A program made the translations under genes and the position numbers. The notes under the pieces are model-generated. The model was not told the DNA's origin, did not search any database, and saw only the letters and a list, made by a program, of their open reading frames with translations. Of a stretch of 64,000 bases of DNA, positions 13,696 through 31,387 are shown piece by piece. Source of the stretch: Nitrospirota bacterium (GTDB lineage Bacteria > Nitrospirota > JACRHJ01); NCBI GenBank assembly GCA_963733375.1, contig CAVTDB010000002.1:1-64000 (forward strand), written 5' to 3'. Each line of letters opens with the position of its first letter. Positions within the stretch are counted from its first letter, which is position 1.

Positions 13696-13938
13696 TAGTT
13701 TGTCAGGATGTCAGCCGCCTGCAGCCTTTTGCGGCGGGTTAAGCATCGACCTGGCGTTCGGCGCGGACAGCAAGTTGAGATTAAAACCAAACCTCTGAGC
13801 GGTGCTGGCGGAGGCGCCGCCGCTGACCGAATCATTCTGCTGACAGGAAGAGCCGGTTCCGTAACTCATTAAGAGGCGCCCGCAGCCTTGTGCTCCAGAC
13901 GGCTCGCTCCTCTCTTGGCAAAGAGAAAGTTTTATGAA

Positions 13939-14691
13939 GTGTTAAACGGCAAAAAAATCATAGTCGTAATGCCGGCTTACAATGCGGAAAAAACGCTTGC
14001 CAAGACCTATGAAGAGATCCCTTTTGATATCGTGGACGACGTTATCCTGGTCGACGACGCCAGCAGCGACCGGACCACCGCTACCGCCAGGGACATGGGT
14101 ATTAAAACCATAGTCCATGAAGAAAACATCGGGTACGGCGGGAACCAGAAAACTTGCTACCGGACCGCCCTGGGGCTCGGCGCGGACATCGTAATAATGC
14201 TCCACCCGGACTACCAGTACACCCCCAAGCTGATACCGGCCATGGCGTCGATGATCGCGTACGAGGAATTTGATGCGGTACTTGCCTCGCGTATACTTGG
14301 CATTGGCGCCTTAAAAGGCGGGATGCCGTTTTATAAATACCTGGCTAACCGCTTTCTCACGCTGGCCGAAAACCTGCTGCTCGGCCATAAGCTGTCCGAA
14401 TACCATACCGGATACAGGGCCTTTTCCCGTGAAGTCCTGAATCGGCTACCGCTCGAAAACAACTCCAACGATTTCGTCTTCGATAACCAGATGATCGCCC
14501 AGATTATCTGGTTTGGCTATCGTATCGGGGAGTTGAGCTGTCCTACAAAATATTTCACGGACGCCTCATCCATAAACTTCCGCCGCAGCGTAATTTATGG
14601 TTTCGGCGTTTTGCGGACCGCAATCCAATTTCGCTTTCAAAAATGGGGGATCTGCCGGTCCAGGATATTCGGCCCCGTTGCGGGCCGCTGA
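13939..14691 (+). CDS. Glycosyltransferase family 2 (DPM1-like polyprenol-phosphate sugar synthase)
   Basis: [40 protein letters not shown]; probable GTG start 13939. Confidence 0.9.
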
Positions 14692-14728
14692 ATGGCTAAT
14701 AATTAAAATTACGTGAGGGTGAAGGAAG

Positions 14729-16576
14729 TTGCGATTTAAAATCATTGTTATCTTGGTGTTGCTTACCGCAATCGCCCTGGCTTACTGGAATATTGGAGGC
14801 TATTTTATAAGCCTTGACGACCTCGATTATATTACAAAAAACATCCATGTTACAACAGGCTTGACCAAGGGAAATTTCGTCTGGGCTTTTACCAACAGCT
14901 ATCAATCTAACTGGCATCCTCTGACATGGTTATCCCATATGGCTGATTGCCAGCTATATGGACTGGATCCGAGAGGGCACCGCCTGACAAATGTCTTATT
15001 TCATGCAATAAACACTGTTCTCCTGTTTCTGCTTCTCCTTAAGATTACCGGCGCCAGATGGCAGAGCGCTTTTGTGGCTGCTTTATTCGCGCTTCACCCG
15101 CTGCATGTGGAATCGGTTGCATGGATCGCGGAGCGCAAGGACGTTTTAAGCGGCATGTTCTGGATGCTGACTCTGCTGGGATATGCATATTATGCGGAGC
15201 GCCCGAATTTCAAAAGATACCTTCTGACTTTATTTGCCTTCGCCCTGGGACTTATGGCCAAGCCCATGCTTGTTACTCTCCCGGTGGTAATGCTTCTTCT
15301 GGATTACTGGCCTTTAAAACGGACTGCTTTAATTGAAGCCAAAGCTGGGGATTCCGGTCAAACCCCAGGTAAAACAAAGGCAATAAAATTCCCATTACTC
15401 ATCATAGAAAAAATTCCCTTTTTCGTACTTGCGGCGGCCTCAAGCGCTATTACCATTTATGCCCAGAAATCAGGCGGCGCGGTCATTCCGATGAAGGCGG
15501 TCCCGGCAGCTTTCCGGAGCGTAAATGCCTCGATTTCATATGTCACATATATTGGACAGATGTTTTGGCCGGCCCGGCTTGCCGTCTTCTATCCCCTGCC
15601 TTTTAACTTGACTATCTGGCAGGGCCTGGCGGCAGGCGCCTTACTCCTGGCCGTAACTGTTGGCGCCGTCATGCTGGCCCGGAAAGCGCCTTATTTCTTA
15701 ACCGGCTGGTTATGGTATCTAATAACTCTCCTGCCGGTCATAGGGTTTATCCAGGTAGGGCTGCAGGCAAGGGCCGACCGTTATACGTATCTGCCGCTTA
15801 TAGGCATTTTTATCATTATAGCATGGGGAGTCCCGGCTCTCCTGGCCACCTGGAAACACCGTAAAGGCGCGCTTACAGTCCTTGCGGCAATTATTCTTTT
15901 AGCGTGCGCGCTCGCAACCAGGCATCAAGTGGCCTTCTGGGAAAGCGACCTGACGCTTTTCAGGCATGCCGCGGACGTTACCAATAACAACTATGTGGCT
16001 TATAAAATTTTAGGATATGACTTTTTAAGCCAAAAGAAATATGACGAAGCTGCGAGTAATTTCTCGGAGGCATTGCGCAGTACGCCTGAGGGCAAAGATG
16101 CGGAGGCCCTCTCAGGCATGGGTTTTTGTTTGATGGCACTCGGTAAGACTGATGAAGCGATTGCCTTTTTTCAGAAAGCTATTAATATAAAACCCGACCA
16201 CATAAATGCCCTTTTAGGCTTGGGAAACAGTTTCTTAAGAATAGGCAGGGTGGACGATGCAATAGGTCAATTCTCCAAAGCAGCCGAAATTGACCCCAAT
16301 AGAGCCGATGTTCAGTATAGTCTCGCGCGTGCGTTAGGCGAGCGGGGAAGGACCAATGAAGCTATACAGCATTTTGAAGCGGCCCTGCAATTAGACCCCG
16401 ACCTCGCGGAGGCCCATTATGACCTTGGGGTTTCGTTACTTCGGGTAGGCAGGCTTGACGAGGCGATATACCATTTTGAAGAGGCTGTCAGTATAAAGCC
16501 GGACTTTGGGCAAGCTCGCAGCAGTCTTCAGGCGGCCCTTTTGCTTAAAAAAGAACCATCTCACCAAAAAAAATAG
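14729..16576 (+). CDS. Multi-pass membrane protein with C-terminal TPRs (TMTC-like GT-C glycosyltransferase)
   Basis: LDD in first loop, WHPLTWLSH, FALHPLHVESVAWIAERKD, ADRYTYLP, many TM segments, then TPR repeats. Confidence 0.85.
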   Translation: MRFKIIVILVLLTAIALAYWNIGGYFISLDDLDYITKNIHVTTGLTKGNFVWAFTNSYQSNWHPLTWLSHMADCQLYGLDPRGHRLTNVLFHAINTVLLFLLLLKITGARWQSAFVAALFALHPLHVESVAWIAERKDVLSGMFWMLTLLGYAYYAERPNFKRYLLTLFAFALGLMAKPMLVTLPVVMLLLDYWPLKRTALIEAKAGDSGQTPGKTKAIKFPLLIIEKIPFFVLAAASSAITIYAQKSGGAVIPMKAVPAAFRSVNASISYVTYIGQMFWPARLAVFYPLPFNLTIWQGLAAGALLLAVTVGAVMLARKAPYFLTGWLWYLITLLPVIGFIQVGLQARADRYTYLPLIGIFIIIAWGVPALLATWKHRKGALTVLAAIILLACALATRHQVAFWESDLTLFRHAADVTNNNYVAYKILGYDFLSQKKYDEAASNFSEALRSTPEGKDAEALSGMGFCLMALGKTDEAIAFFQKAINIKPDHINALLGLGNSFLRIGRVDDAIGQFSKAAEIDPNRADVQYSLARALGERGRTNEAIQHFEAALQLDPDLAEAHYDLGVSLLRVGRLDEAIYHFEEAVSIKPDFGQARSSLQAALLLKKEPSHQKK

Positions 16577-16630
16577 CGCAAGTCCTTAGAACCTGCATTT
16601 TTTCCAATGCATGCCTTATTAAGCAAAGCC

Positions 16631-16650
16631 GGGGCCTCCGAAGAGGCCCC
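16631..16650. terminator. Intrinsic terminator-like hairpin between convergent genes
   Basis: GGGGCCTC-CGAA-GAGGCCCC (cUUCGg loop on minus strand); near-identical hairpin at 31644-31659. Confidence 0.7.
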
Positions 16651-16694
16651 GCGCCCTTTTAATAATTAGACCTGCCTATGAAAGCCGCCTAAAC

Positions 16695-18092
16695 TTAGTC
16701 TTTCGCGTGGCACTTGTTGCACAGCTGGCGCTGGTATGCCGAGAATACGGTCTCTGGCCTGCCGTACATGCCCGCCTTGTACTGGCCGGTCACCATCACG
16801 ATATCTACCCCAAGCGGATCGATCACCGTGGGGTAGACGCCAGCACTGACTATGAGCTCGTCGTTGAAGTCCCACCTGCCGCTCTGCTGGAAGGCGGAGG
16901 CGTGCGCCCTGTGGCAGGAGAGGCACATGACGCTGGTGGTCGCGGACGCGATCAGGTTGTTGGTATCGGGGGTGTTAACCGCTAAATTGCCGCTAACCAT
17001 GGGGCCAAGCGTGGCCCTGGTAGGGGTGCCATTCATCTCGATTGGGATGAGGCTGGTGTACTGGTTGGTGCCAGTCATATTGCCGCTGCCAAGGTAGGCG
17101 TTGTAGTTCTCAGCTATGGTGAAAGTACCGCCGCCGGCGCCAATGACGTTGCCGGCAAGGACGTTCATTGTCGCGGTCGCGCCATTCGGATGCCTGTGCG
17201 TAATGGAGGTATCGCTGGAATTGAGCATACCGGGGTGGCAGTTCGCGCACCATTCGGACATGCCCGAGCCGTAGGCGACCCTGACCTCACCGTTGAGGTT
17301 CTCGTCCTGATTGTAGGCTACCGGTGCTACCGCTATCGGCGAATTATTGATGAACGCGGGACCGGTGGGGTAAGACTTCGGCAGATAGCCAGAGCTGCCA
17401 AGAAGCCTGTAGACGCCAACTGCGTTGGTTCCATTCACCGCAGCCGGGTAACCCGAGCTGACAGGATAGGAGCCGGAGTTGGAGATCGGGTCGATATTTA
17501 CGCCCGGGGTGCTGGGGCCCGATATAGTGCCATCCGCAGCCTGCCTGAAACGTCCATGGGGATCATGGCAGCTGGTGCAGTGGAGATTGGCTGAGGCGTA
17601 GGTTCCGCCCGGCGCCGTGGCCATTTGGGAAACGATCAAGTTGAAATCGGAGGCCACTATATGGTGACCATTGCTGGTCCACGGATTGCTGGTGTTTGAG
17701 CTGGCATTGATAGCCACCAGCCATCCGAAGTCGCCGCCAGGGGTGTAGTTGAGCGGGGTGGCGCCGACGGAAATAGGATAAGTCATCTCGGAATAGCTGC
17801 GCGCAACAGAGTTGGCATGACAGTTGAGGCAGGTAGAGGACTGGTCGGAGCCCTTCAGGAGGTACGGTGTATTCGACTGGGTTATGGTATCAGCGGGGCC
17901 GTTTAAAGTCGATGCGCCGCTCTGTGCGCTATTAGGTACGGTATTGTTTGTTCCACCCAGCGAGTTGTGCATTAAATGACAGCCTTCGCAAACCGCGACG
18001 CCGCCGTCATGGAAAGCGAACGCGCTGCCGGTGAGTCCCATCACCAGCATGACCACCAGGCCGGCCAGTGCTCTAATGTTAAATAACTTCAT
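16695..18092 (-). CDS. omcS: OmcS-family hexaheme cytochrome c (paralog 1)
   Basis: Signal peptide then FHDGGVAVCEGCHLMHNSLGG; six CxxCH; TPGGDFGW, CHDPHGR, RVAYGSGMSEWCANCH, CLSCHRAHAS, YQRQLCNKCHAKD match recalled OmcS sequence; SD GGAGG; exact orthology not established. Confidence 0.92.
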   Translation of the reverse strand: MKLFNIRALAGLVVMLVMGLTGSAFAFHDGGVAVCEGCHLMHNSLGGTNNTVPNSAQSGASTLNGPADTITQSNTPYLLKGSDQSSTCLNCHANSVARSYSEMTYPISVGATPLNYTPGGDFGWLVAINASSNTSNPWTSNGHHIVASDFNLIVSQMATAPGGTYASANLHCTSCHDPHGRFRQAADGTISGPSTPGVNIDPISNSGSYPVSSGYPAAVNGTNAVGVYRLLGSSGYLPKSYPTGPAFINNSPIAVAPVAYNQDENLNGEVRVAYGSGMSEWCANCHPGMLNSSDTSITHRHPNGATATMNVLAGNVIGAGGGTFTIAENYNAYLGSGNMTGTNQYTSLIPIEMNGTPTRATLGPMVSGNLAVNTPDTNNLIASATTSVMCLSCHRAHASAFQQSGRWDFNDELIVSAGVYPTVIDPLGVDIVMVTGQYKAGMYGRPETVFSAYQRQLCNKCHAKD

Positions 18093-18150
18093 TTTACCCT
18101 CCGTTTGTTTTCCGATCGCCTTCGCCTCCTTGCCTTTCAAGGGACGGTCT
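18093..18150 (-). promoter_or_regulatory. Conserved 5' leader shared with OmcS paralog 3
   Basis: CCGTCCCTTGAAAGGCAAGGAGGCGAAGGCGATCGGAAAACAAACGGAGGGTAAA-ATG resembles 33086-33138. Confidence 0.6.
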
Positions 18151-18363
18151 GGCCATCGTAATAAGAAACTTCGTAGGGGGATGCAGGGAACTTTTTCGAA
18201 ATTTCTTGTGTTCGAACCGGAGGGCTAAGGTTGAGTGCGCTCTGGAAAGTGTTTCTTGAGAACTCAGGATCAGAAGTTTTTTAAAATTTGTACGCATCCG
18301 TCATGACAACGGCTGCGTACCTGTTATAAATACTATATAATAAGCAATAGATTTTCGTCAAGT

Positions 18364-19639
18364 TTAATGCACATGGCATTTATCGCATAGGGTCTTCTGG
18401 TTTGCCGCGAACTTGCCGGCGGGGCGGCCGTACATGGCCCGCTGGTACTCAGCTTGAGTCTTGCCGGTAGCGTACTGGCCGTATGCTCCCGTCCCCGCCG
18501 CATTGGTCCCTGGGTACGCCCCGTTTACGGTTATCAGGGTCGAGGAATAGTTGGCCCATCTCATCGCGCCATCCCAGGCGGAAGCGTGCGCCCTATGGCA
18601 GGAGAGGCAGTTGACCATGTCGCCTGGGTCCGGCCCCGCCGTTGAGCCCACGATATTAGAAAGGGTTGCCAAGTCAGTAGAGTTGCCGGTCTGAAAAGGC
18701 ACGAGCGAGGTATATGCCGTGGCCTGGGTGCCCGACAGGTCGCCGGTCATCACATAGATGTTATAATTATTGGCGTACGTCGAACCGAAAATCATGTCGG
18801 AGTCATGACTGAACGTGCTGCCGCTGCCCGCCATATGATAGGCTCCATGGCAGTTCTCGCACCATTGGCTCACGCCTTGCCCATATGCGACCCTCGTATC
18901 CGTGAAGTGGCCTCGGACCTGTTGTAATTTGACGGGGAAACGGCGTAAAAGGGATCGTATACGAAAGCATAGTTGCCTGAAAGAGATGTGGGCTGATAAT
19001 TCTTCCCGCCCAGGAGCCGGTAGACGCCGACCGCGGTCGTCTGTTGTAGGCAGCATCCCGTAAGAGCCGGACGCGGCAATGGGTGGTATCGCCGCCCCCC
19101 TGGCTCGGCCCGACTCATTCCACTACTTGTTATCCTGAAGCGGCCATGAGGGTCGTGGCAGCTGATGCATGAGAGGTTGGCCGAGGGGTAATAGCCGCCA
19201 GGCGAAGTATTATAAGTCGCGTCCTGGAAATAATTATAATCAGTCGCGATTATATTGTGCCCGTGCCTGTCGCCGGGGCTGTTCTGCATGACCCCTTTCG
19301 AGGTTATCCAGCTATAATTTTTTTGAATATAGGCAAAATCTCCGCCCGGGGTAAGCTGCGCCGGGCGGGAACCCGGGGCGGAGGTGGATATGTAGCCACC
19401 GCATAATTGTCGGTCGTGGAAGACGGAATGGCAAATCAGGCAGGTGGAACTGCCGTCGGAGCCCTGGAGCAGGTATTTATCGGGCTTCCAGGATATGTGT
19501 TCGACCAGCTTGAGAATAATGCATCGTATGGCAGCCATCACATTGTGCGACGCCGCCATCATGAAAAGCCTCTCCCGAGGATGGAAATGGCCACCAATGC
19601 AACTGTAATTATCACTAAGAATAGGTCTGTCTTTTTCAA
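18364..19639 (-). CDS. omcS: OmcS-family hexaheme cytochrome c (paralog 2); frameshifted
   Basis: Reconstructed across frames: TTG start, AFHDGGVAQCDGCHTMH, CLICH, LTPGGDF, GDRHGHNII, CISCHDPHG, RVAYGQGVSQWCENCH, CLSCHRAHAS, LCDKCH. Confidence 0.85.
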
Positions 19640-19764
19640 AGTTTAAACCGGAGTTGGCCAGCGAAGCTATCATTAAAATAATACTATAATCAGCATTTTG
19701 CAAAGGGTCAGATTCTGCCTCCCATGATTAAATCTACACTCTCACTCATTACGAGTAAAAGGTT

Positions 19765-20669
19765 TTATTTAGCAATTGAAAAAATTCCTACCCGGTTATT
19801 GCCCCTGTCCGCAATAAAGGCATAACCCGTCGGGCTGACGCACATCTGGACGGGATAATACAGCAGTCCTTCGCTCCAGCCGAGGGTTAACTGCCGTCCC
19901 CTGGAAGGAGCCATCCTGACCGAGTATTATTACGCCTGCGCCGTGCTCGTCCACCACAAAGAAGGTACCCTTTTCGTCCATGGTGATCGAGATGGGGAAG
20001 TTCATGTAATCCTTCATGTCTTTCGTGAAGGGCGAGAACTCCTTTCCCGCGGGAGCGGAATAGATAATACAGTTTATGGAATCGACGATATAAATGGTCC
20101 CTTGCGGGTCGATGCACAGGTCCGCGATAAAACCCGCGCCTTTAGGGAAATCTATTTTTTTCTGAAATTTCCCAGCCGGGTCAAGGACGACAACACTCGT
20201 CGATGTGTTGTCTGCCAGGTAGATATTGCCTGAAGAGTCGAGCTTGAAGCTGACAGGGTTGATGCTTCCGAAGCCGGCAGGCAGGCCCTGCGGCTCGATA
20301 TAGCCCACAAATTTGCCGGAGGGGTCTATGTGCGCAACCTTCCTAAGCTTACTGTCGAGGACGAAAATATCGCCCTTCGCGTCCAGTTGGACGCGGGTCG
20401 GGCTTGCTATCTGGGGAAGTTTTATCGGCACCCCGATTTTAAGCCCCGAATCATCGTAATGGAAGGATACCAAGCCTGCCATTACCCGTATCCGCGGCGA
20501 CAACTTCCTTATCGTTGCAGGCTATACCCTCGGGGCTGGTTAATGCCCCCTCTTTATCGTCCGTATAAATAGAAAGCTTCGGCAAAAGGCTGATCCTTCC
20601 GGCGGCCAACCCGGCCGCCGGAAACGAAAGGAGTATTACAAGCGCAGTAAGAAATAAGCCTTTTTTCAT
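19765..20669 (-). CDS. Secreted NHL-repeat beta-propeller protein; frameshifted
   Basis: Signal peptide MKKGLFLTALVILLSFPAAGLAA; repeats PEGIA, VVAADTGNGR, LDSSGNIYLAD, FIADRGNNRV. Confidence 0.8.
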
Positions 20670-20672
20670 ATT

Positions 20673-23600
20673 TTACCTCTTATACTGTTGGTGGCATTTG
20701 ACGCAGAGATCCGAAATGGTCGCGTACGGTATAAGGTGCTTGTACTCGGTCCCGTGCGCCCTGTGGCAGCTCAGGCACACCATAATCAGGTTCGGGTTCC
20801 TCTTGTCCTTGAATTTAGGCCCTATCGGATGGGATGCGTGCTGCTCCCAGTCATGGCATTTGCCGCACAGGGGTATAACCGACGTCATATTAAACATCAG
20901 CGGCCTGTCGGAGGCGTGCGCGTCGTGGCATGCCGTGCAGAACCCGTCGGCTATGGGCTCGTGCTTGGTCGGTGAGTGTTCCTGTCTGGCTATGGTATCC
21001 GCGTGGCATTTGCCGCAAAGCGTAATCATGTCAGACTTAAGAAGGCTCCGCTCGGTCGATGCGTGAGGGTTGTGACAGTCCAGGCAGCCCCTTTTATCGA
21101 GGACCGGCCAGTGCACCCTGCTCTTGCTTAGGATGTCGTTTACCTTATGTGGCATGGCAGCCGCGGCACAGCTCATATCCCGGCTTTTTTAACTTCAGCG
21201 GCTCTGGCGCGCCAGGCCCTTCGTGACACTGGGTGCACATCTTTTCCGCGACCGGCTTGTGGACGTTGTTGTAGAGTATCCCCTTCCTGTCGGAGCCGTG
21301 CGGGTTGTGGCACATGACGCAGTTTGCGTTCGCCACCGGGAAGTTCATGTGCTGCTGGACGAAGAAGGGCTTCTCCGGCGATGGCAGGTTTTGCAAAGCC
21401 CCGGGACTTCCTGCTTCAGCAGGAAGTCGGACGTCTGCGACTCGTGCGGGTTGTGGCAGTTCAGGCAGTTCTTCTCGACCGGGTTATGCTTGAACTTGGC
21501 ATTGCCCACGGAGTTGGCCATGTCCTTGTGGCAGCCGAAGCAGAGTTCGTTGCCCGCCTTCAGCAGGTTGAACTTGTTGTCCGAAGAATGCGGGTCGTGA
21601 CACTTTACGCAGGAACCCTCCAGCACGGGCTTATGTACGCTTTTCGCCTTGCCGGAGAGTATGTCCTTATGGCAGGTAAGGCATACCTTGGAGACGTCCG
21701 CCTTTAGGAGCTTGTCGTTGGCGGAAGTGTGCGGGTTGTGGCAGCCAACGCATTCCCCGATCTTTACAGGGGTATGGACGAACGGCTTCTTTAATTTGTC
21801 TTCAAAGTCGCTATGGCAGCCAAGGCAGACCGGCCCTCTCCCGCCCGGCTTCAGTTTAAACTTGGCATCCGTCTTTTTCTCCGTCTCGTGGCACTCGCCG
21901 CAGTCGCGCGACTCGAACGGCGGGTGCAGCTTCTCCTTGAATAGCTTCGGGTCCTTCGAGGAATGCGGCGTGTGGCAGCTCACGCAATTTATTTCGGCCG
22001 GGTTTATCCCCAGGTGGGCCTTCTTGAAATCGTCGGCCGTGAAGTCATGGCACTGGCTGCAGAGGCCCGGCACTGCCTGAATCTCAAGGTGCGGCTCCGA
22101 TGAGAAATGCGGCTTATGGCAGTTGAAACAGTCGTTCCGCGGCCGGCGAGTGCGCATTCTCCGAGGCCATCTTATCTTTCATGGGCTTGTGGCAGGTAAG
22201 GCAGAGGTCGGGCGACTCGCGCGAGCAGGAGGTTCTTCAGCTTGGATTTGTGCGGGCTGTGGCACTTGGTGCATTCCCCGGCTAGTACCGGCGGGTGCGC
22301 GCTTTTGGCCGCTTTCGCCCCATCTACGAGCGCCTTGTGGCAGGTGCCGCAAAGGGTCTGCTGGTCAGCTACGACCATCGCGGGCTTGTTGCTGCCGTGC
22401 GGGTCGTGGCAGGTCAGGCACATCCCCTGGGTGAACGGCTTATGCTCGATGCCTCCTTCGACCGGCTTCATCAGCTCCGCTGTGGCAGGTCGAGCAGAGC
22501 TTGGGCACCGGCTGCTTCAGAAGCTTGTCATTGTCGGAAGAATGCGGGTTATGGCAGGCAGTGCACATCCCCTTTTGCACCGGGTCGTGCGTGCTTGTTT
22601 TAATGAACCGTGCCTCCTCATCCGTATGGCATGAGTAGCAGACGGTTTCCGTCCGGTCATTAAGCATCCCTGGGAAATTTGAGCCGTGGGGGTTATGGCA
22701 CGAAGCGCACATCCCGCCCGCGAACGGAGGATGCACGTCTTTCGCGGACATCGCCTTTTCCTTGTCCTTGTGGCAGGTAAGGCAGAGGGATTCGGCGGGC
22801 GCCTTCAGCAGCTTCTCGTTCTTCGAGGCGTGGGGCATGTGGCAGGACAGACAGCCTTCTCCGCTCGTCACCGCGCCATGCGGCGCAGCTACCTTGACGT
22901 CCTTGTCCTTATGGCAGCCGACGCAGAGCTTGTTCCCGGGCCTTAAAAGGAGCTTCGGGTTATCCGAAGTATGCGGGTCATGGCATGACAGGCATTCGCC
23001 TTTTTTAAAGGGCGGGTGCTCGACTTCTCCGGCCTTGAGCGTGGAGATGTCATGGCATTGGAGGCAAAGCTCCGGGACCTTCTGGGTCACGCCGAACGGG
23101 TCCTTCGAGTCCGGCCGGGTTGTGGCAGCTGTTGCAGCCGCCCTCGGCTACCGGGTTGTGCAGGGTCGATTTAACCAGCTTCGGCAGGTCCGAAGAATGC
23201 GGGTCGTGGCAAGACGTGCAGGCTTTGGATTCCATGGGATATCCGCCGTGCGCCTTCTTGAAGGGCGTCGTCTGTGCTCTTATGACATCCAAGGCATAAC
23301 TTCGGGTCCGCCGCCGTCAACAGGTTCTTGAAGTCCGAACTGTGGGCCATGTGGCAGGCGCGGCAGCCCCCGGTCGTGAGGACCTTATGGACGAATTTCC
23401 TCTCGAAGCTCTCCCTCTTATGGCATTGATAGCAAGCTTCGTTCCCCTCCGCTTGCAGCAGATTCGGCGAATTTGACGCATGGGGGTTATGACACTGGGT
23501 GCACAGGCCGGTTTTTAAAGCGCCATGAACATTTGGCTTGTTAAGCCCGATTTTTTCCTTCGTATGGCATTTCAGGCAAAGGTCGTTTCCGTTTATCTTA

Positions 23601-23846
23601 AGAATGAGCGCTGGTATAATGCCGTGACGTAAATGGCAGTCCTCGCATTTTTTGTCCTTGACAGGCTGATGCACGTTTTTCATGGACATGTACTTGTCGC
23701 TTGAACTTCGTGTGGCAGTCAAGGCATTCCTTCTTGGCAAACGTCCTTGCGGCCGTTGACGGCGTTATCATCAGGGCGACAAGCGATAAGGAAAGCGCCA
23801 CGCCTAAGGCCGCAAATATAAAAGGCTTGTTCTTTACATGTAACAT
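20673..23846 (-). CDS. Very large multiheme cytochrome c, 42 CxxCH motifs counted across assembly frameshifts (~1050 aa)
   Basis: One N-terminal signal peptide; repeating H.P....CxxCH.PH.S....LL.......CxxCH units; motifs per fragment 1+6+2+9+4+11+3+6. Confidence 0.8.
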
Positions 23847-23869
23847 GTTTACTGCCCCTCCTTATTATC

Positions 23870-23939
23870 CGGTTTTGGCGGTGCTTAATCCCGTTATATA
23901 GAATTATTCGGTTTTGGCGGTGCTTAATCCCGTTATATA
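23870..23939. repeat. 31-bp direct repeat (period 39) duplicating the 3' end of the foldase gene
   Basis: CGGTTTTGGCGGTGCTTAATCCCGTTATATA at 23870-23900 and 23909-23939. Confidence 0.9.
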
Positions 23940-25784
23940 AACCCTTACTTTGTGCGCCTTGCGGAGCTTCTCGGCCCATTCCTGGACCGATTTGTTCAGT
24001 TTCCCGTCGTAAACCTTCCTCGCAGTAGTATCCCTGGCTTCTTTATAATCCTGCTTCTTCGTCGGGATATCCTGGCGTACATTGATGACATAAGAAAACT
24101 TGCCGTCCGAATAAAGCCGGTAGTCCCCAGTCTTTGCACCGGTCAATACTTTTCTCAGCCCTTCGTCCAGCCCGGTTACCGTAAAGACATTCCCGTTAAA
24201 TGAAAGGGCGCCCTGCTCGTTATCCTTTATCTGGCCTGACGCATTTGATTTCATCCAGCCAAAATCATCTCCCTGCTGAAGCTTCTTCAAAGTATCCGCG
24301 GCGTCCTTCACATTATAAAATCCCAGGCTGTATAAGTGTCATCATCTTCGGGATCGGTATAGTCAGAGATATGGTCTTCATAGTATTTCTTGTTTTCTTC
24401 CTCGGTAATCTTTATATCAGGAGCAACTGCTTTCTCGACAAAAAGCCCGAAAAGACCGACTTTTCATAGTCTGCAATCGATTTTTTATACTCGTCTGTTT
24501 TGTCTATACCCTGGCGTTTTGCCTCTTCCAGGAACAAGTTGCGATACGAGTATTTCTTCAAGGACGGCATTCTTTACCGGGTTCACCTTCTTTTCTTTGA
24601 TGGCCCGATCTATGCCATGAAAGAATTTCGCCGTTTAATGCCTCGGTGTATTGGCCGACAGTGATAGACTTTTCCACCTTTTATTTTAACAAGAATTCGC
24701 TTATCATGAAGAAGCTTTGAAAATTTGGCCGACGCTTGATTCGAAATGTCAAACTATTAAAAAGCTTTCTATTAAAAACGGTATATTTTTTCAGTAAACC
24801 CCTGTAATATTCCTGTAAAATGATTGCTCTTTTTTATCTCATAAGCCCTCGCTTCAGCCTCCTTTCTGGCGCTTGCGTCTTCGGGATAGCGGATTCCTTC
24901 CACCTTCATTACCGTATATCCCTCCGGGACCTTGATAACAGGAGTGACTTCTCCGGTCTTCAGCTTTTCCAACTCGGCCTCCACTTGAGGAAGGAGCTTT
25001 ACCGCCTTGACATATTGGTCCTCGGCAGAACCTTTGGCGGTCTTATCCGTAAGCGCCTTTCTTAGCGAGGTCATCGAAATTTTTGACCCCCTTTAAGTTC
25101 GGCGGCCATTTTTTTCGCGTCTTCCTCTTTATCAAACATAACCGACTTTATCTTCCATTCCTTGACGGCCTGCTTTATAAAATTTCTCTACAACATCATT
25201 ATCAGGGACAATATTTTCGGTCTGCCTCTCCTTGAGCATACTCACGCAGAGTGCGGTCCGTCATTTTTCTTGAGCGTCGTCCTGGACGTCCGGCAGTTTG
25301 TCGAGGCCCATATCTTTTGCTTCCATATTAATCAGCGTCATGTTTATAAGCCTGTCGAGAATAGTCTTATAATCCATCTTCGAGGCAGAATTGTCCTTGG
25401 AGGCAGTATTGTCACCCTCCTCTTTGCTTTCGTGCATGGCGGAGAGCGATTCATTAAGTTCCTGGAGTGATATTATTTCATCGTCCACCGAGGCTATGGG
25501 CACGTCCTTGAAAATGGGAGAAAAGAGGGGCGCGTTCAGGAGGACAGACGTCTCTTCTGTGGGCTTAGATTCTGCGGGCTTGATCTCAGTCTTGGCAGCC
25601 GCGGGCTTGGTCTCGGGCTTGGTCTCGGGCTTGGTCTCAGCCTTGGCAGCCTCGGGCTTGGCTGCCGTCGTCTTGGCGGGCGCGGGCTTTTCGGCCTGCT
25701 GTTTCTGCGCAGTTCCGCCGCGGCGGCGGTTACGATGTTGAACGAGAGAAATGTGGAAAATACCAATGTCAAGATCCGGTTCAT
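23904..25784 (-). CDS. SurA/PrsA-like periplasmic foldase (PPIase-type); heavily frameshifted
   Basis: Signal peptide, PETK-rich linker, PIASVDDEIISLQEL, ILDRLINMTLINMEA..MGLD, LK.GEVTPVIK...GY.V.KV, W.EKLRKA.KV. Confidence 0.7.
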
Positions 25785-25796
25785 CTTACTTCTCCT

Positions 25797-27045
25797 TATG
25801 CGGTGATAATGGGGACATTAGCCGACAAATTTATTAATCTATTTTTCTTTCATTTACCTGATAATATTTCCAACCATCTCGGAAGACATTTTCTCCGCCG
25901 TGTATACCTTTCCTGCATCAAAGAAGAATACGCCCTGGTCTCCCTTCGTTCCGGCTTTTCGAGGACCAGACCTGACGCATGTTTTTTCGTTCGATTACCT
26001 GTACGGTGAAATCCACTGTAGGCGTACCCGCGGGTCCCTGATAATCTTGATAGTCGAAAACCCTGCCCATAAAAATCAGGTCCGCGTCAAGGGTGATCAT
26101 TACTACCTCGGCATCGGACATCGTCAGCCCATCATTCATCACAACCCTTTGCCTCAGCATTTGGTCCCGGACGACCCCGGGCTCGACCACATCCATGCCC
26201 GGGATCTCGTACAGGTGCTCGATGAACTGGAGCATTATTATTTCTTCGGCGTTCTGTCTTCCGCTCCTGTTAAAGAAAGGGGCGACCGCGACCTTGTATC
26301 GCTGGTCCATGTCAAACTCGGGGGATTTATAATAATATTTCGGCCTGAACTTCCTCCTGCCGCCGTCCTTCGCCGGCGCAGCCCCGGCCATGCTTGCCGC
26401 CAGGGAGTCCGAAAGCCGCTCCAGGGACTTGTCCATCAGCTTCCCTGCGTCTGCATATGAATCCAAGGTCTAAAAGTCCGCGGCTGGTCGTCTCCCGACC
26501 TCCCGCAATCGTCCATCCATTTTATTGTCGGCTCCGGGCCGGTCATCACCAGCCTGGACACAATTGCTATTTTTGGCGGGACCGGGGTGCTGTAAAGTTC
26601 AAGGGATGTTATCAAAACGCCCTGCACCCCTATCTCTTCTGTCGAAAAGGGATGAGATATTCTTGTCAATCCCCCCGGTGAACCTGACCCTGTGCTTCGC
26701 CATGAAGCCGTCGAGGACATCGTCGCCCAGCACGGCAATACCGCGCGCTTTCAGCTTCTCAATATACTCCCGCCGTATTTCCTTCAAGCGGCGCGAGGTG
26801 CCGCTCAGGTTCTCGATCGGCAGAACCGCAACCAGCGCGTTTTTTAATCCGGCATCGGCCGGCCTTACGGCATGGGTTCGTATATATTCCTCTGACGCAC
26901 CCGCGGCCCTCAGCATCCCCTCATTTAGCGGCGTAGGGATAATCGCCTTCTCCTCCGTCGTTCCGGGGGCAGGCGCAGAGGCCTGCTTCGGGTTGCCGCG
27001 CAACCTGAAAGAGCCAGAAAGACAATAGCGGACAGGGCGGCTATT
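25797..27045 (-). CDS. Envelope protein with two CsgG/DUF799-like domains; frameshifted, both ends approximate
   Basis: VAVLPIENLSG and KVAVAPFFNRSGRQNA, L.AD.IF.G.V.DY, VWSSKS patterns. Confidence 0.6.
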
Positions 27046-27608
27046 TTATTTAAATAACTGGTTGAGCAGGTCATTTACCGCCTTCTCCGTCACAACGTCC
27101 ATCGGCTCCCCGCCGCCTCCAAAAAGGCGGTCCGATGAATGTTATGCCGCCTTTCGTGGATGCGCCCTTCCAGACAACTTTTCCGGTCTGCGTCTCCGTC
27201 ATCTCCACGCTGACCGAGATTACGTTGGCAGTGGAGCTGGAGGAGCGGACCTCGCCGTATTCCCTGACGACTCCCGAAATAATGGCGTTGACTTTCAGCG
27301 CTCCTGCGAGCTTGACGATTTCATCGGAGGAGGGAGCGGTTGGATTGGCCATGCCCGCCCGGATGATCCCCTTCGAAACCTCGCCGGACTGGCAAAACAT
27401 ACATATCGCCCGTGTAGCCAGAAGCATTGAGGAGAAAACGTCGCGCACGCGGTCGGCAGCCTGGTTGTCATGGGTCAAGTTCGCAAACGGCATGACCGCG
27501 ACTGTCTTTATGGAAGCAAAGTCCATGTTGGAATCGTGGAACGTTTCCGCCCCGTGAGCGCAGGACGTTAAAAGGAAAAGAAGAGATAACACAATAAAAT
27601 TTTTTCAT
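27046..27608 (-). CDS. DUF799/CsgG-like lipoprotein; frameshifted
   Basis: Lipobox LTSC; IKTVAVMPFANLT, VNAIISGVVREYG, ETQTGKVVW. Confidence 0.72.
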
Positions 27609-27636
27609 TCCCATAGAGGGTCTCCAGACATCAAAC

Positions 27637-29969
27637 TTAGGTTCCTGAGTTAAAGTGCAATTTAAGGCTTGCGCTCAATATTTTCGAATCATTTGTTTGA
27701 ACCGCTATATTCGAATTGTTGGATCGAGTAAACCAGATCCAGATATGCCCCGGGCCTGATATTCCATCTGAGGCTCGGAGAATATCAGCCTGCTTTTTTC
27801 ACCATTCGCCGGCCCGAGGGTCTCATTGTATGACGAAATGAAACTGGAGTGTCCCGCCCGGGAACGGCGAGAAGTTGACGCCGTAATTTGACGTGGTTTG
27901 GAGGATGTTATTGGACTCGCTCAACTGTATCGAGGCGAACAGATAAAGCGCTGTTACCGGCGTATATGTAGCGCTTGCGAGTCGCCGAAATAGTTGGTGG
28001 TCGAAAAGGCCGGCTTGCCCTCCGCCCGACAGAGGATGAGCTTGTGATATTATAGATCAGGTTTACGTTCAATTCCGGGTTAGGAACAAGGGTAAGGCCG
28101 GCATTGCCTTGCAGTGTATCGGTGTTCTGGCCGGTCTCAGCGCGGCGAATGTTACCCCTCCGTTCAAAGAGGCTGTCGATGCCGGGATAAAGCGTCGCCG
28201 TATTGTAAAGGAAGATTGAGTTCTGGAGTGTCTGGCCTGGTGCCCGTCCGGGAATTCGGTATTGTAATGTCCGCTGTATAATAAAGAGTCGTTCAGGGTG
28301 GCGAACGGTGTGGCGCTTAAGGCGCGCTGAGTATTGATAGTCTACCGCGTGCCCGGCCGTCAAGGTAGTTATCCTCCCTTGCCGCCCTCGCGTTAAATGT
28401 GAAAATGCCGCCGAATTTTTGGCTGAATGAGAGACCGTTTGAACAGGAACGAGGTAGTTAGCGCGTCCAGGGTCGAATTTACTGACAGAAACAGCGACAC
28501 GTCATAGAAAAGGTTCCGGCTTTCGAGTATTTTGACCCTGCCGTTAAGGTTAAGATGCTGGGTAATGGCCGAGATTGCGAAGGCTTTGGCTCTTGGACTT
28601 CGACGTGAAGTTCTGCTGATAAACGCTTGTAGTTCTGTCACGGCAATGTCATTGAAGTTGGCGGGGTGTCAGCCCGCGTACAATGATAGTGGTCTGGTCG
28701 ATGTTGTCAAGCGGTTTTACCACCACCTTGACAAACCTTGACGTTATCGCGGACGGGGAAATTGATAATGAAATGTGGGGTGCGGCAGAGTTGAGAAATC
28801 GGCTGGAGCCACGGTGACCGTAAACCTTTTGGTCCAGGTAATATTATCATTGCTTGTATAAATGTCCCATTTAAATAAGTCGGATATCTTGGTCAGGTCC
28901 TTATCCACCCAGACACTAAGAGAGTTTAACTGCGTAGGCGTAACGAAGTCGATGCCGATGTTCCACTCTTGCCGCGGCGGCGGCGGGATGGTTGCCAGCC
29001 CGGAACTTGAGGCCCAGATTTATTCCCGCCGAGGCGGTCATCGTTGCCGTCTATAAGCGGCGGGTTTTCATTCAGCGTTATCATCGCGGGCGTTTGATTC
29101 GGGTTGGTCAGATCGCTTATGCCGGAGAGCCCATGGACTGGAAAAAGCTGGATTTGCACGGCGTTTATCCCGCCTCCCGCGCTATCGTTTCAGAGGTTTG
29201 GCTCGAAATATTATAGGTCCGCGCCGACCATTGACCCTTTTATTGAAAAAGATATCGCCGTAGCTGATTCTCGGCCGCTATGCTGCAAAGAAGTGTTGAT
29301 CACGATTTCCTGAGTTTATCAAGTGAGTCTATGTAATTCAGATCATACATGAGGCTGAACCTGTTTTAAGGGATTGAATCTAATACCCAGCGACAGGCTC
29401 GTCAGTCGCAATATCTGTAACAAGCTGAGTGCTGTCATAAATAAAATCTTTCGAATAATTAAGGTCAAATGAGAGGAAGGCTCCGGATCGGGCTTCCAGA
29501 CGAAAGGTTCCACTATACCTCTCATCAGTCTTAGCTTAAGGTGATCCGATCGTCTTCTAGCATCGTCCTCTTATAATAGCCTACAGCGGAGTAAAACGGC
29601 CTGGCGTTAAACCTGATGTCTGAAAAAATGTACAAATTGATTCTCCGCCGAATGCACGGGTCGGTATCGTCTTTTAAGGGTGGAATTGGTTCCTTCTGAA
29701 CAGACCGCCGGCGTTGAATACAAGGTTGGGGAAAATATTTTTATCCATATAAAGGTTGTAGAGTTGGTCGAAATTTCTGATGTTCGTCTTGGTTTCTGTC
29801 CCGATTAGGTCGGTCGTAGTCAGGCTGCCAACGTTATAATCCTCGGATGGTGAACAACCCAGGCTGTCGGCCAAAACCGTATCGGGGACAAGGACCGCCA
29901 ACCATAAAAAAAAATGCGGCTAGATATTATATATCCTAGACTGACGGACTGTCTAAGACGCAATTTCAA
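27637..29969 (-). CDS. Large outer-membrane beta-barrel-like protein; heavily frameshifted
   Basis: Coding-like interval with amphipathic beta-strand fragments (FDQLYNLYMDK, LQGNAGLTLVPNPELNVNLIY, ILSASLKLHF); TTG start overlaps upstream stop. Confidence 0.55.
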
Positions 29970-31387
29970 AAACGTTCTCCCATCATGGTGATGAAGTATG
30001 GGGATTCAAGCACGTCAAACTCCGGGAGCGGCTGCTTGCCCGTTATCCGTGCGGTCTGGACGGCTTTTTCGTCCGGCAAAAGAAGGAACAGGTTGTTGTT
30101 CTCGTCGTCGATCGCCATAAAGGAAGCGTTGCTGGCGGTCTGCATGTAGTCCAGCGGTATCAGCAGGACCGGGTCCAGGATGAATAATCCTGCTCTCGTT
30201 CTTCTTGGCTACATAAATGAGGCCCGTGTTCCGGTCCACCTTTATGCCGGACAGCCCAAGGCCCACGAAAATCCTGTTGGTGACTGAAAGAGAGGCGACG
30301 TCTAAAACCGTGAGATACGGGGACGCGGACTCGTATGACATAGAGCTTGTCGCCGGCCGGGTTGAACTGTCCCCTGATGGGGCTTGAGTCGGTCGCTATG
30401 GTTGCGGCCACGGCGCTGTTGGCGACGTCTATCACGGAAATGGTGTTGGATATGCTGTTAAAAACGTAGGCGCGCCTGCCGGCGCTGTCCATGATGATGG
30501 AGACAGGCCCCTGGCCGACCGGTATGCGGCTCTGCTCAATCATGGAGGACGTATCGATTACGCTCACGGTGTTGGAGCCTTTGTCCGTCGCAAGGAGCAG
30601 CCTTTTGTCAGGGGTCAGGGCAAGCTCCTGCGGCGAGTCCCCGTTGTTCAGCTTGACCTTGTTTATTATCCTGCCTGCCCTTACGTCGATGATTTCCACC
30701 TCGTCGTCGCCCGATGCCGCAACGTACAGGCGCTCGCCTACCTGGTCGATGGCGAGCCCGAGAGGGCCGCGGCCCGTGGCCAAAACGCCGACTACCTGTC
30801 TTGAAAGCTTGTTGAATATGGTGAGGTTGTCGGAGCCGTAATTCGATACGTAGCCGAGAAGGCTTTCAAGGGTCTTCTCAGGCAGCAGGAAAGTGAACCC
30901 CGGGGTGAAACTGAAACTTGGGCTTACCGATTTCCCGTAGTCGAACGCCGCGGTCAGAAGGGACGCTTCCTTCTTTGAAATAGTGAAGTGGCCATCGATG
31001 ATTTACAGGTTTTTCCGGGGTTAAAAGCGACGCCTCGCCGTCTTCCGTCTTTATGGACGCCTTATCGACCTTCATGAGGATGCCCACATAATCCCCGGGC
31101 GCCAGACGCCCGTATGCGAACAGCCTCTGTGATTTCAGGTCGGCACCCTTTATCTCCGTGAACGCGAGGTTAAGCGGGGTCTCGGTGCCGTCGTCCTTTA
31201 CGGCTTTAACCTCGGAAACGGTAAACTGGAGCTTGTCAGAGTCTTTCGGCATGGGCTGGAGGTAGATGTAGAGCTCCCCTTCGTCCGTAAGGGGCGGCCT
31301 CAGGAGCGACAGTTTCTGCTGGCATCCGGCGGACGCAAGCAAAAGGATTATCAAAAGGCCAATGAGTTTCCCGGATCTGAATTTCAA
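29966..31387 (-). CDS. Lipoprotein with YncE/YVTN-type beta-propeller; frameshifted
   Basis: Lipobox ASAGC; repeats YVSNYGSDNL, GPLGLAID, GSNTVSVID, GQGPVSI, SNTISVID. Confidence 0.8.

Follow-up and report, generated by a model that had tools for sequence, protein, structure and literature searches.

The closest described counterparts of the cytochrome reported here lie in the omcS region of Geobacter sulfurreducens, where GSU2495 and GSU2494 are located (PMC3495685). GSU2495 (oscI) encodes a cytochrome with 26 heme motifs (PMC2996986; 10.1101/2025.11.06.686851), GSU2494 (oscJ, also PccJ) follows it and encodes a second cytochrome, both products are periplasmic (PMC13194489), and the two genes are counted in the omcS-companion operon of this species (PMC13194489, citing Shen 2025). 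A literature search returned no heme count for GSU2494 in the portions of text available. The periplasmic electron route to cytochrome nanowires is still debated, and the large osc-cluster cytochromes, with 26 and 16 hemes, are without an assigned role. Here we analyzed a 64,000-nucleotide stretch of a Nitrospirota bacterium (GenBank assembly GCA_963733375.1, contig CAVTDB010000002.1, positions 1 to 64,000), referred to as the window, and focused on its minus-strand gene at 20673-23846. We are confident that this is a real, selected gene for one 42-heme cytochrome, in which a 26-heme and a 16-heme module are joined in an OmcS-type cluster. A preliminary description of this DNA, made from its letters alone, had described GSU2495 as a 26-heme, omcS-linked gene, and the literature cited above agrees.

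The genome of the window is labeled G000, a second genome of the same genus G002, and the corresponding locus of the latter L013. The gene and its parts are as follows, coordinates being those of the window.

20673-23846, minus strand: c-type cytochrome gene with 42 CxxCH motifs, 1055 residues and 21 doubled-CXXCH units (motif count, G002 ortholog, Pfam)
23748-23846, minus strand: putative signal peptide or anchor at the N terminus, residues 1 to ~33 (hydropathy scan)
21888-23747, minus strand: 26-heme module, motifs 1-26, OscI/GSU2495 type (matches to stand-alone 26-heme genes)
21864-21887, minus strand: junction linker of eight residues, ETEKKTDA (open reading frame list, boundaries in relatives, contigs of runs X3 and X5)
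20673-21863, minus strand: 16-heme module, motifs 27-42, OscJ/GSU2494 type (starts with the KFKLKPG of mature stand-alone proteins)

Over the three minus-strand frames of 20673-23846, the CxxCH motifs number 27, 9, and 6, which gives the total of 42 counted in the preliminary description; no CX3-4CH motifs were found in these frames. The intact ortholog in G002 (L013:6968-10135) is a single open reading frame (ORF) of 1055 amino acids with 42 motifs, which Pfam PF09699 (doubled CXXCH) matches over 21 stretches with an E-value (E) of 3.9e-239; the motif content far exceeds what chance would produce. The ATG at 23846 is preceded by an AAGGAGG-like site. As for the single signal peptide proposed earlier, a hydropathy scan detected one hydrophobic segment, at the N terminus (residues ~7-35), and none in the rest of the protein, junction included. 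The protein contains 84 cysteines (2 x 42) and 89 histidines, at ~24 residues per heme, and an alignment of 85 sequences showed that all 42 CxxCH motifs and 37 additional histidines are invariant. The protein would bind 42 bis-His hemes and would be located in the periplasm.

In the window as given, the gene is scattered over eight overlapping ORF pieces in three frames. The pieces, all taken from the ORF list of the window, and the range of the responsible indels are listed below.

23598-23846, minus strand: ORF piece of 82 amino acids
23171-23740, minus strand: ORF piece of 189 amino acids
23050-23292, minus strand: ORF piece of 80 amino acids
22440-23090, minus strand: ORF piece of 216 amino acids
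22172-22471, minus strand: ORF piece of 99 amino acids
21345-22157, minus strand: ORF piece of 270 amino acids, containing the junction
21145-21396, minus strand: ORF piece of 83 amino acids
20673-21176, minus strand: ORF piece of 167 amino acids
21148-23703: eight uncompensated 1-bp indels (alignment to G002 and to contigs of other runs)

A global DNA alignment of the G000 and G002 genes (90% identity) shows one base too many in the window at each of 23703, 23268, 23112, 22478, 22219, 22140, and 21148, one too few at 21379, and a compensated indel pair at 22890/22882. When the frame is corrected, with an X at each break, it reads through 1055 amino acids with no stop and 42 motifs, at 88% amino acid identity to G002. 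The ratio of nonsynonymous to synonymous substitution rates (dN/dS) between the two genes is 0.22 over 1045 codons and 0.22 in each half, and the 42-heme gene is under purifying selection. The single ORF of ~1050 amino acids expected in the preliminary description was thus recovered, with no real stop at any of the frame breaks; its statement that the ORF is intact stands for the junction, which lies in the 270-amino-acid piece without a stop, and fails for the region as a whole.

Taken at face value, the eight frameshifts could instead be real mutations in a decaying pseudogene. They are present in the window as given, and the sequences with which we compared it come from relatives rather than from reads of the source sample. 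These were, besides G002, the Logan contigs of four sequencing runs from four studies (X1, X2, X3, and X5) aligned to the window, with no run containing more than 0.09 of the sampled words; no RNA run was among those identified, which says nothing about expression in either direction. Two properties of these contigs weigh against calling the breaks errors: the indel-free contigs are 88-99% alike to the window and so belong to relatives, and they leave site 23703 uncovered. At the other sites, however, contigs of all four runs carry the same base corrections (7/8 indel sites), and every relative aligned to the window is free of indels at the sites it covers. A decaying gene would also have to be reconciled with a corrected frame that has no stop and no lost motif, and with the dN/dS of 0.22. 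Moreover, the damage is not confined to this gene, single-base indels being pervasive in G000. The rpoB gene of G000 (C26:79801-83751) was recovered as eight matched pieces, with 10 internal stops among those listed, and all six neighboring genes with an identity of at least 55% to G002 are spread over two or three frames. The completeness score of G000 is 81% in 26 contigs, as expected for an indel-rich long-read assembly. Because rpoB and the six neighbors are similarly broken and G002 and the other runs lack the indels, we read the eight breaks as single-base assembly errors rather than mutations, and we consider the pseudogene reading very unlikely.

The 42-heme gene carries about three single-base indels per kb, and ORF-based annotation of G000 would therefore fragment most of its long genes, so that frame correction is needed. 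Indel-rich assemblies probably under-report long cytochrome genes of this kind. Similarly frame-scattered cytochrome genes occur at four loci of metagenome-assembled genomes (MAGs), L056, L044, L073, and L087; in L056, 26 motifs are distributed over three frames and are followed by 16 in one frame.

At the junction, eight residues come after motif 26 (CGECH, 21888-21902), and KFKLKPGG...C succeeds them, with motif 27 at 21827; motifs 26 and 27 are 20 residues apart. The junction peptide (21813-21902) lies within the uninterrupted 270-amino-acid piece, without a stop or a second hydrophobic stretch, and AlphaFold2 modeled the junction as a short beta-hairpin (predicted local distance difference test score, pLDDT, of ~74 for the 10-residue block, against 90 and 86 for the flanking blocks). 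The Geobacter-type proteins differ from this one in two respects: an OscI-type protein is a separate polypeptide ending just past motif 26, whereas here the frame continues into motif 27, and an OscJ-type protein has its own start codon and signal peptide, in place of which the eight-residue linker is found. The gene thus encodes one polypeptide, with an eight-residue linker and without a second signal peptide, where G. sulfurreducens has OscI and OscJ, the comparison being made through other Geobacteraceae. Among named members of that family, Geomonas oryzae, Geomobilimonas luticola, G. silvestris, and G. diazotrophica carry the adjacent pair; in Geomonas and Geomobilimonas the 26+16 pair lies between genes for a peptidyl-prolyl isomerase (PPIase) and an NHL protein, and the N-terminal part is 55-61% identical to the G002 protein.

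An assembly in which a stop codon and a signal peptide had been dropped between two genes would produce the same picture, and the assembly is error-prone and the nearest relatives are split. The errors seen are single bases, however, whereas a loss of ~90 nt would be needed. The same junction is found in G002, which at 90% DNA identity represents another species-level genome, and in contigs of two further runs from different studies: record 19 of X3 (1124-nt contig, covering 21215-22336) and record 29 of X5 (377-nt contig, covering 21748-22123) cross it without a further indel. Fusions of this type also exist elsewhere with a different linker, as in locus L064 described below. A false junction is therefore extremely improbable, and the claim that no stop or signal peptide is missing there holds in these relatives.

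Both halves match proteins encoded by separate genes, as had been predicted. A search with the full-length protein scored 8000 candidates and retained 1161 proteins at E <= 0.001, of which the best 120 were examined. Fifteen of these have 26 motifs; 14 of them cover residues 4-656 in the alignment and terminate 4-8 residues past motif 26, the remaining one being aligned out of register. A second search was made with the C-terminal part (residues 655-1055), and its best 120 matches (~412-602 amino acids) were examined. They are 52-65% identical over 98-100% of the query, and 115 of them carry 16 motifs in ~420-450 amino acids. In the four N termini inspected among these 120, a signal-peptide-like start precedes a KFKLKPG-type start, and the latter is common to the 15 split loci compared. 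At the linker position, the relatives have a tail of 4-6 amino acids and a stop codon, then a spacer followed by a signal peptide. Because the stand-alone 26-heme proteins end and the 16-heme proteins start at this point, the boundary after motif 26 reads as a true module boundary. Two relatives have other architectures: P0097 (601 amino acids) places a SPOR domain (PF05036) ahead of the 16-heme module, and P0045 has 1629 amino acids and 52 motifs.

The distribution of the joined and split forms was surveyed in contigs of one genome per species, where the best 80 matches to the 16-heme module comprised G002 and 79 other loci. Among the 79 other loci, 62 are cleanly split, with the 26-heme gene directly upstream of the 16-heme gene, one is fused (L064), and 16 are of other kinds (cuts at contig ends, frameshifts, 25+16 or 26+15 motifs), none of them a 42-motif ORF. 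In the split loci, 69-246 nt separate the stop of the 26-heme gene from the first cysteine codon of the 16-heme gene (105-146 nt in 50/62). In L023, L040, and L062 the split 26- and 16-heme genes share one reading frame, so that the stop and the signal peptide fall inside a single tblastn alignment over 97-99% of the 42-heme query. The module is present in 31 of 401 sampled genomes of the phylum; the long frame was found only in G000 and G002, and the other 29 carriers have frames of 345-488 amino acids. Within the same family, 1/11 other genomes (G002) has the module.

Outside this group the joined form is widespread. Exactly 42 motifs are present in 85 of the best 120 full-length matches; these 42-motif proteins are 30-39% identical to the query and belong, by source name, to Zixibacteria, GN15, Krumholzibacteria, Latescibacteria, and Gemmatimonadaceae. 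These proteins, annotated as "cytochrome c3 family" or "doubled CXXCH", have the same length (~1040-1090 amino acids) and the 42 motifs in register, and each of the three trees described below groups them in a clade of their own. Their junction sequence differs, and the spacing of motifs 26 and 27, as compared across forms, is mostly 22 residues in them versus 25 here. A metagenome scan for distant 42-heme loci gave 80 loci, two of which (L094 and L095) contain a 42-motif ORF; of the loci longer than 9 kb, which were examined individually, many others hold split 26+16 pairs or other cytochromes. One further metagenome contig, L163:6099-20741, contains adjacent giant frames of 1931 amino acids (41 CxxCH) and 2948 amino acids (44 CxxCH, running off the locus). 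By these counts, the joined form is rare among near kin and common in other phyla. The natural fusion proposed in the preliminary description is upheld in its two-module architecture, for which the 62/79 split adjacent loci speak, while its presentation as unique goes too far, given how widespread the 42-heme chain is in other phyla. A literature search found no description of 42-heme proteins, which is not proof that none exists.

The joined gene probably arose by secondary fusion from a split ancestor, through an in-frame deletion of ~90 nt; this is the history we favor. The eight-residue linker would then replace the stop codon of the first gene, the spacer, and the signal peptide of the second gene. 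A deletion of this size is favored because the linker resembles the usual five-residue tail followed directly by the mature 16-heme start, and because the stop-to-cysteine distance of 105-146 nt in most split loci compares with 20 residues in the fused form. Trees of the two modules were built with FastTree (94 rows for the C-module and 109 for the N-module) from 62 clean split loci and every third distant fused protein (29/85), the 16 loci of other kinds being omitted. Each requires three state changes and nests G000+G002 among split forms, with Shimodaira-Hasegawa (SH)-like support of 95 and 97 for the C- and N-module, respectively.

The alternative is that the 42-heme form is a retained ancestral architecture and that the 26+16 split arose later, toward the Geobacteraceae, Nitrospirota, and Anaeromyxobacter type genes. 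The commonest count among the best full-length matches, exactly 42 motifs in distant phyla, would fit this history. Several tree results also speak for it and against a secondary fusion. In a concatenated tree of both modules for 44 chosen rows (IQ-TREE, posterior mean site frequency model, PMSF), G000+G002 branch off close to the base of the 35-row split clade, with support of only 85. This tree needs three state changes, only two of which are forced by the starred branches. A tree joining G000+G002 to the nine distant fused rows is not rejected by the approximately unbiased (AU) test (log-likelihood difference 3.62, p 0.111), and the two FastTrees give G000+G002 different nearest neighbors. 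On the other side stand the nesting of G000+G002 in both module trees, the 29/31 split carriers in the phylum sample, and the linker itself, which has the five-residue tail and the KFKLKPG start of the split clade, unlike the distant fused junction. Fission would also require a new signal peptide, whereas fusion would need just one deletion. Weighing these points, we regard retention of an ancestral form as rather unlikely, though a serious competitor of the secondary fusion.

A comparable fusion is present in L064, a locus of a "Deltaproteobacteria bacterium" MAG with a 1061-amino-acid, 42-motif gene. Like the G000 gene, it is fused inside the split clade and has the same cluster context, but its linker differs from that of G000 (VVPPEKSTHELRLRDG...). 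All three trees pair L064 with a split Myxococcales locus, L086, as sister (support 96-99; 96 and 99 in the C- and N-module FastTrees), and the fusion in L064 is therefore an event separate from that in G000/G002. In-frame fusion at the exact boundary provides a Rosetta-stone argument for the 26- and 16-heme proteins acting as one conductor, and such fusions, found at two positions inside the split clade, are the rule in other phyla. It is tempting to go further and propose that this Nitrospirota genus re-joined the two cytochromes independently, converging on the 42-heme chain of the Zixibacteria type as L064 did, and that OscI and OscJ dock head to tail as one conductor. We put this forward tentatively, our doubts being somewhat greater than our confidence. 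If it is true, fusion recurring at one and the same boundary would imply head-to-tail docking as the normal arrangement of OscI and OscJ, and the continuous 42-heme conductor, of about four MtrA lengths, could span the periplasm to the base of the OmcS filament.

The AlphaFold2 model of the protein has a pLDDT of 87.3 and a predicted template modeling score of 0.59, and the sole Foldseek match at E <= 0.001 is MtrA (6r2q_A; E 1.8e-7, TMt 0.61, 32% identity over 269 columns); phmmer also matches MtrA (6R2Q chain A) at E 5.7e-24. The 16-heme HmcA (1h29) was rejected as a structural relative (Foldseek E 0.2, template modeling score < 0.1). The protein is thus predicted to be a Sec-exported multiheme c-type cytochrome with an MtrA-like heme-wire fold, a prediction against which it must be held that the structure models contain no hemes. 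MtrA, the decaheme component of the Shewanella baltica Mtr complex, shares with it a linear run of CxxCH hemes and little protein per heme. The 42-heme protein has about four times as many hemes, its gene lies in a different cluster (PPIase, NHL, and OmcS), and no MtrB-type porin gene stands beside it in the flanks examined. The ten hemes of MtrA span ~8 nm, and four times that distance would be on the order of the width of the periplasm.

Docking of the split partners was modeled for locus L016, using the last 12-heme part of the 26-heme protein and its 16-heme neighbor, with a 44-row alignment for each partner. The complex scored 0.58, while the best of three controls scored 0.00; contact agreement between runs was at least 93%, and partner pLDDT was at least 85. 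The mark for this score is reached by 58/80 solved complexes and 2/110 mismatched pairs, and scores of 0.60 or less include 7/80 solved complexes and both of the passing mismatches. The prediction passed only weakly, which tells against docking as a firm result, and we take it as a hint that the split partners may dock.

The 42-heme protein would carry electrons over a long distance toward the OmcS filament or its export or assembly apparatus, and in split species the 26- and 16-heme proteins would dock end to end for the same job. The idea of one wire feeding the nanowire, raised in the preliminary description, is one that we infer from the gene fusion, synteny, the MtrA-like fold, and the weakly passed complex prediction. 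A single-chain 42-heme version would also be an easier target for expression and for structure determination by cryo-electron microscopy.

The genes surrounding the cytochrome gene, all on the minus strand, are as follows.

25842-30795, minus strand: upstream conserved cluster genes (Pfam, synteny, comparison with G002)
23904-25800, minus strand: PpiC/SurA-type PPIase, directly upstream, frame-broken, upper end approximate (Pfam Rotamase_2 and Rotamase)
19768-20669, minus strand: NHL-repeat beta-propeller gene, directly downstream, in three frames (Pfam NHL on the G002 ortholog)
18364-19703, minus strand: OmcS-like hexaheme cytochrome, copy 1, in two pieces (G002 ortholog against 6ef8)
16695-18140, minus strand: second OmcS-like hexaheme cytochrome, 481 amino acids, intact ORF (match to 6ef8)

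The upstream segment 25842-30795 encodes an unknown 353-amino-acid protein, a GNA1162-like lipoprotein, two unknown proteins, and a YncE-like beta-propeller; all of the upstream cluster genes matched to G002 are frame-broken. The Rotamase_2 and Rotamase domains were found on the 598-amino-acid G002 ortholog of the PPIase, which is OscH-like by position only, as are all of the OscE-K letters assigned here. In G002 the order is YncE-like propeller, two unknowns, GNA1162-like lipoprotein, unknown, PpiC-type PPIase, 42-heme gene, NHL protein, OmcS homolog, and epimerase. The linkage to OmcS claimed for the gene was found in both genomes: the G002 ortholog of copy 1 aligns with residues 1-405 of the OmcS chain (6ef8; E 2.2e-93), and the ORF at 16695-18140 of the window with its residues 1-407 (E 1.4e-78).

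Synteny was compared over 17 loci from Nitrospirota, Geobacteraceae, Anaeromyxobacter, Acidobacteriota, and other groups. All 17 keep the gene order that runs from the lipoprotein to the NHL gene, with PPIase and NHL flanking the cytochrome or cytochromes, and the distant 42-heme metagenome locus L095, the only one of its kind in this comparison, likewise has a PPIase upstream and an NHL gene downstream. An OmcS-like gene lies within the examined flank of only 8/17 loci, one being a partial match. This last count would suit a cytochrome that has no relation to OmcS and serves as a general store or wire for electrons in the periplasm, its linkage being a matter of neighborhood only. So would the phenotype of the GSU2494 knockout, which was like the wild type according to a table in PMC9248073 that cites Aklujkar 2013; that result counts against an indispensable role in Geobacter. 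The constancy of the PPIase-cytochrome(s)-NHL order across several phyla, and the inclusion of GSU2494 and GSU2495 in the G. sulfurreducens omcS-companion operon (PMC13194489), argue in the other direction, and we consider a function apart from OmcS unlikely without dismissing it. Judged by gene order and content, the genes around the 42-heme cytochrome form a conserved OmcS-type cluster of PPIase, 42-heme cytochrome, NHL propeller, and OmcS.

Two differences from the syntenic G002 locus were noted. A 4.6-kb stretch at 13709-18363, which contains a GT2 glycosyltransferase (13888-14691), a PMT_2/TPR membrane protein (14729-16576), and the second OmcS homolog (16695-18140), is missing from G002. 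At 23864-23939, the window carries a 39-bp tandem duplication (1.9 copies, 97% match) of which G002 has one copy; it reaches from the 3' end of the PPIase gene into the spacer that precedes the start of the cytochrome gene, and it may be real or an artefact of the assembly.

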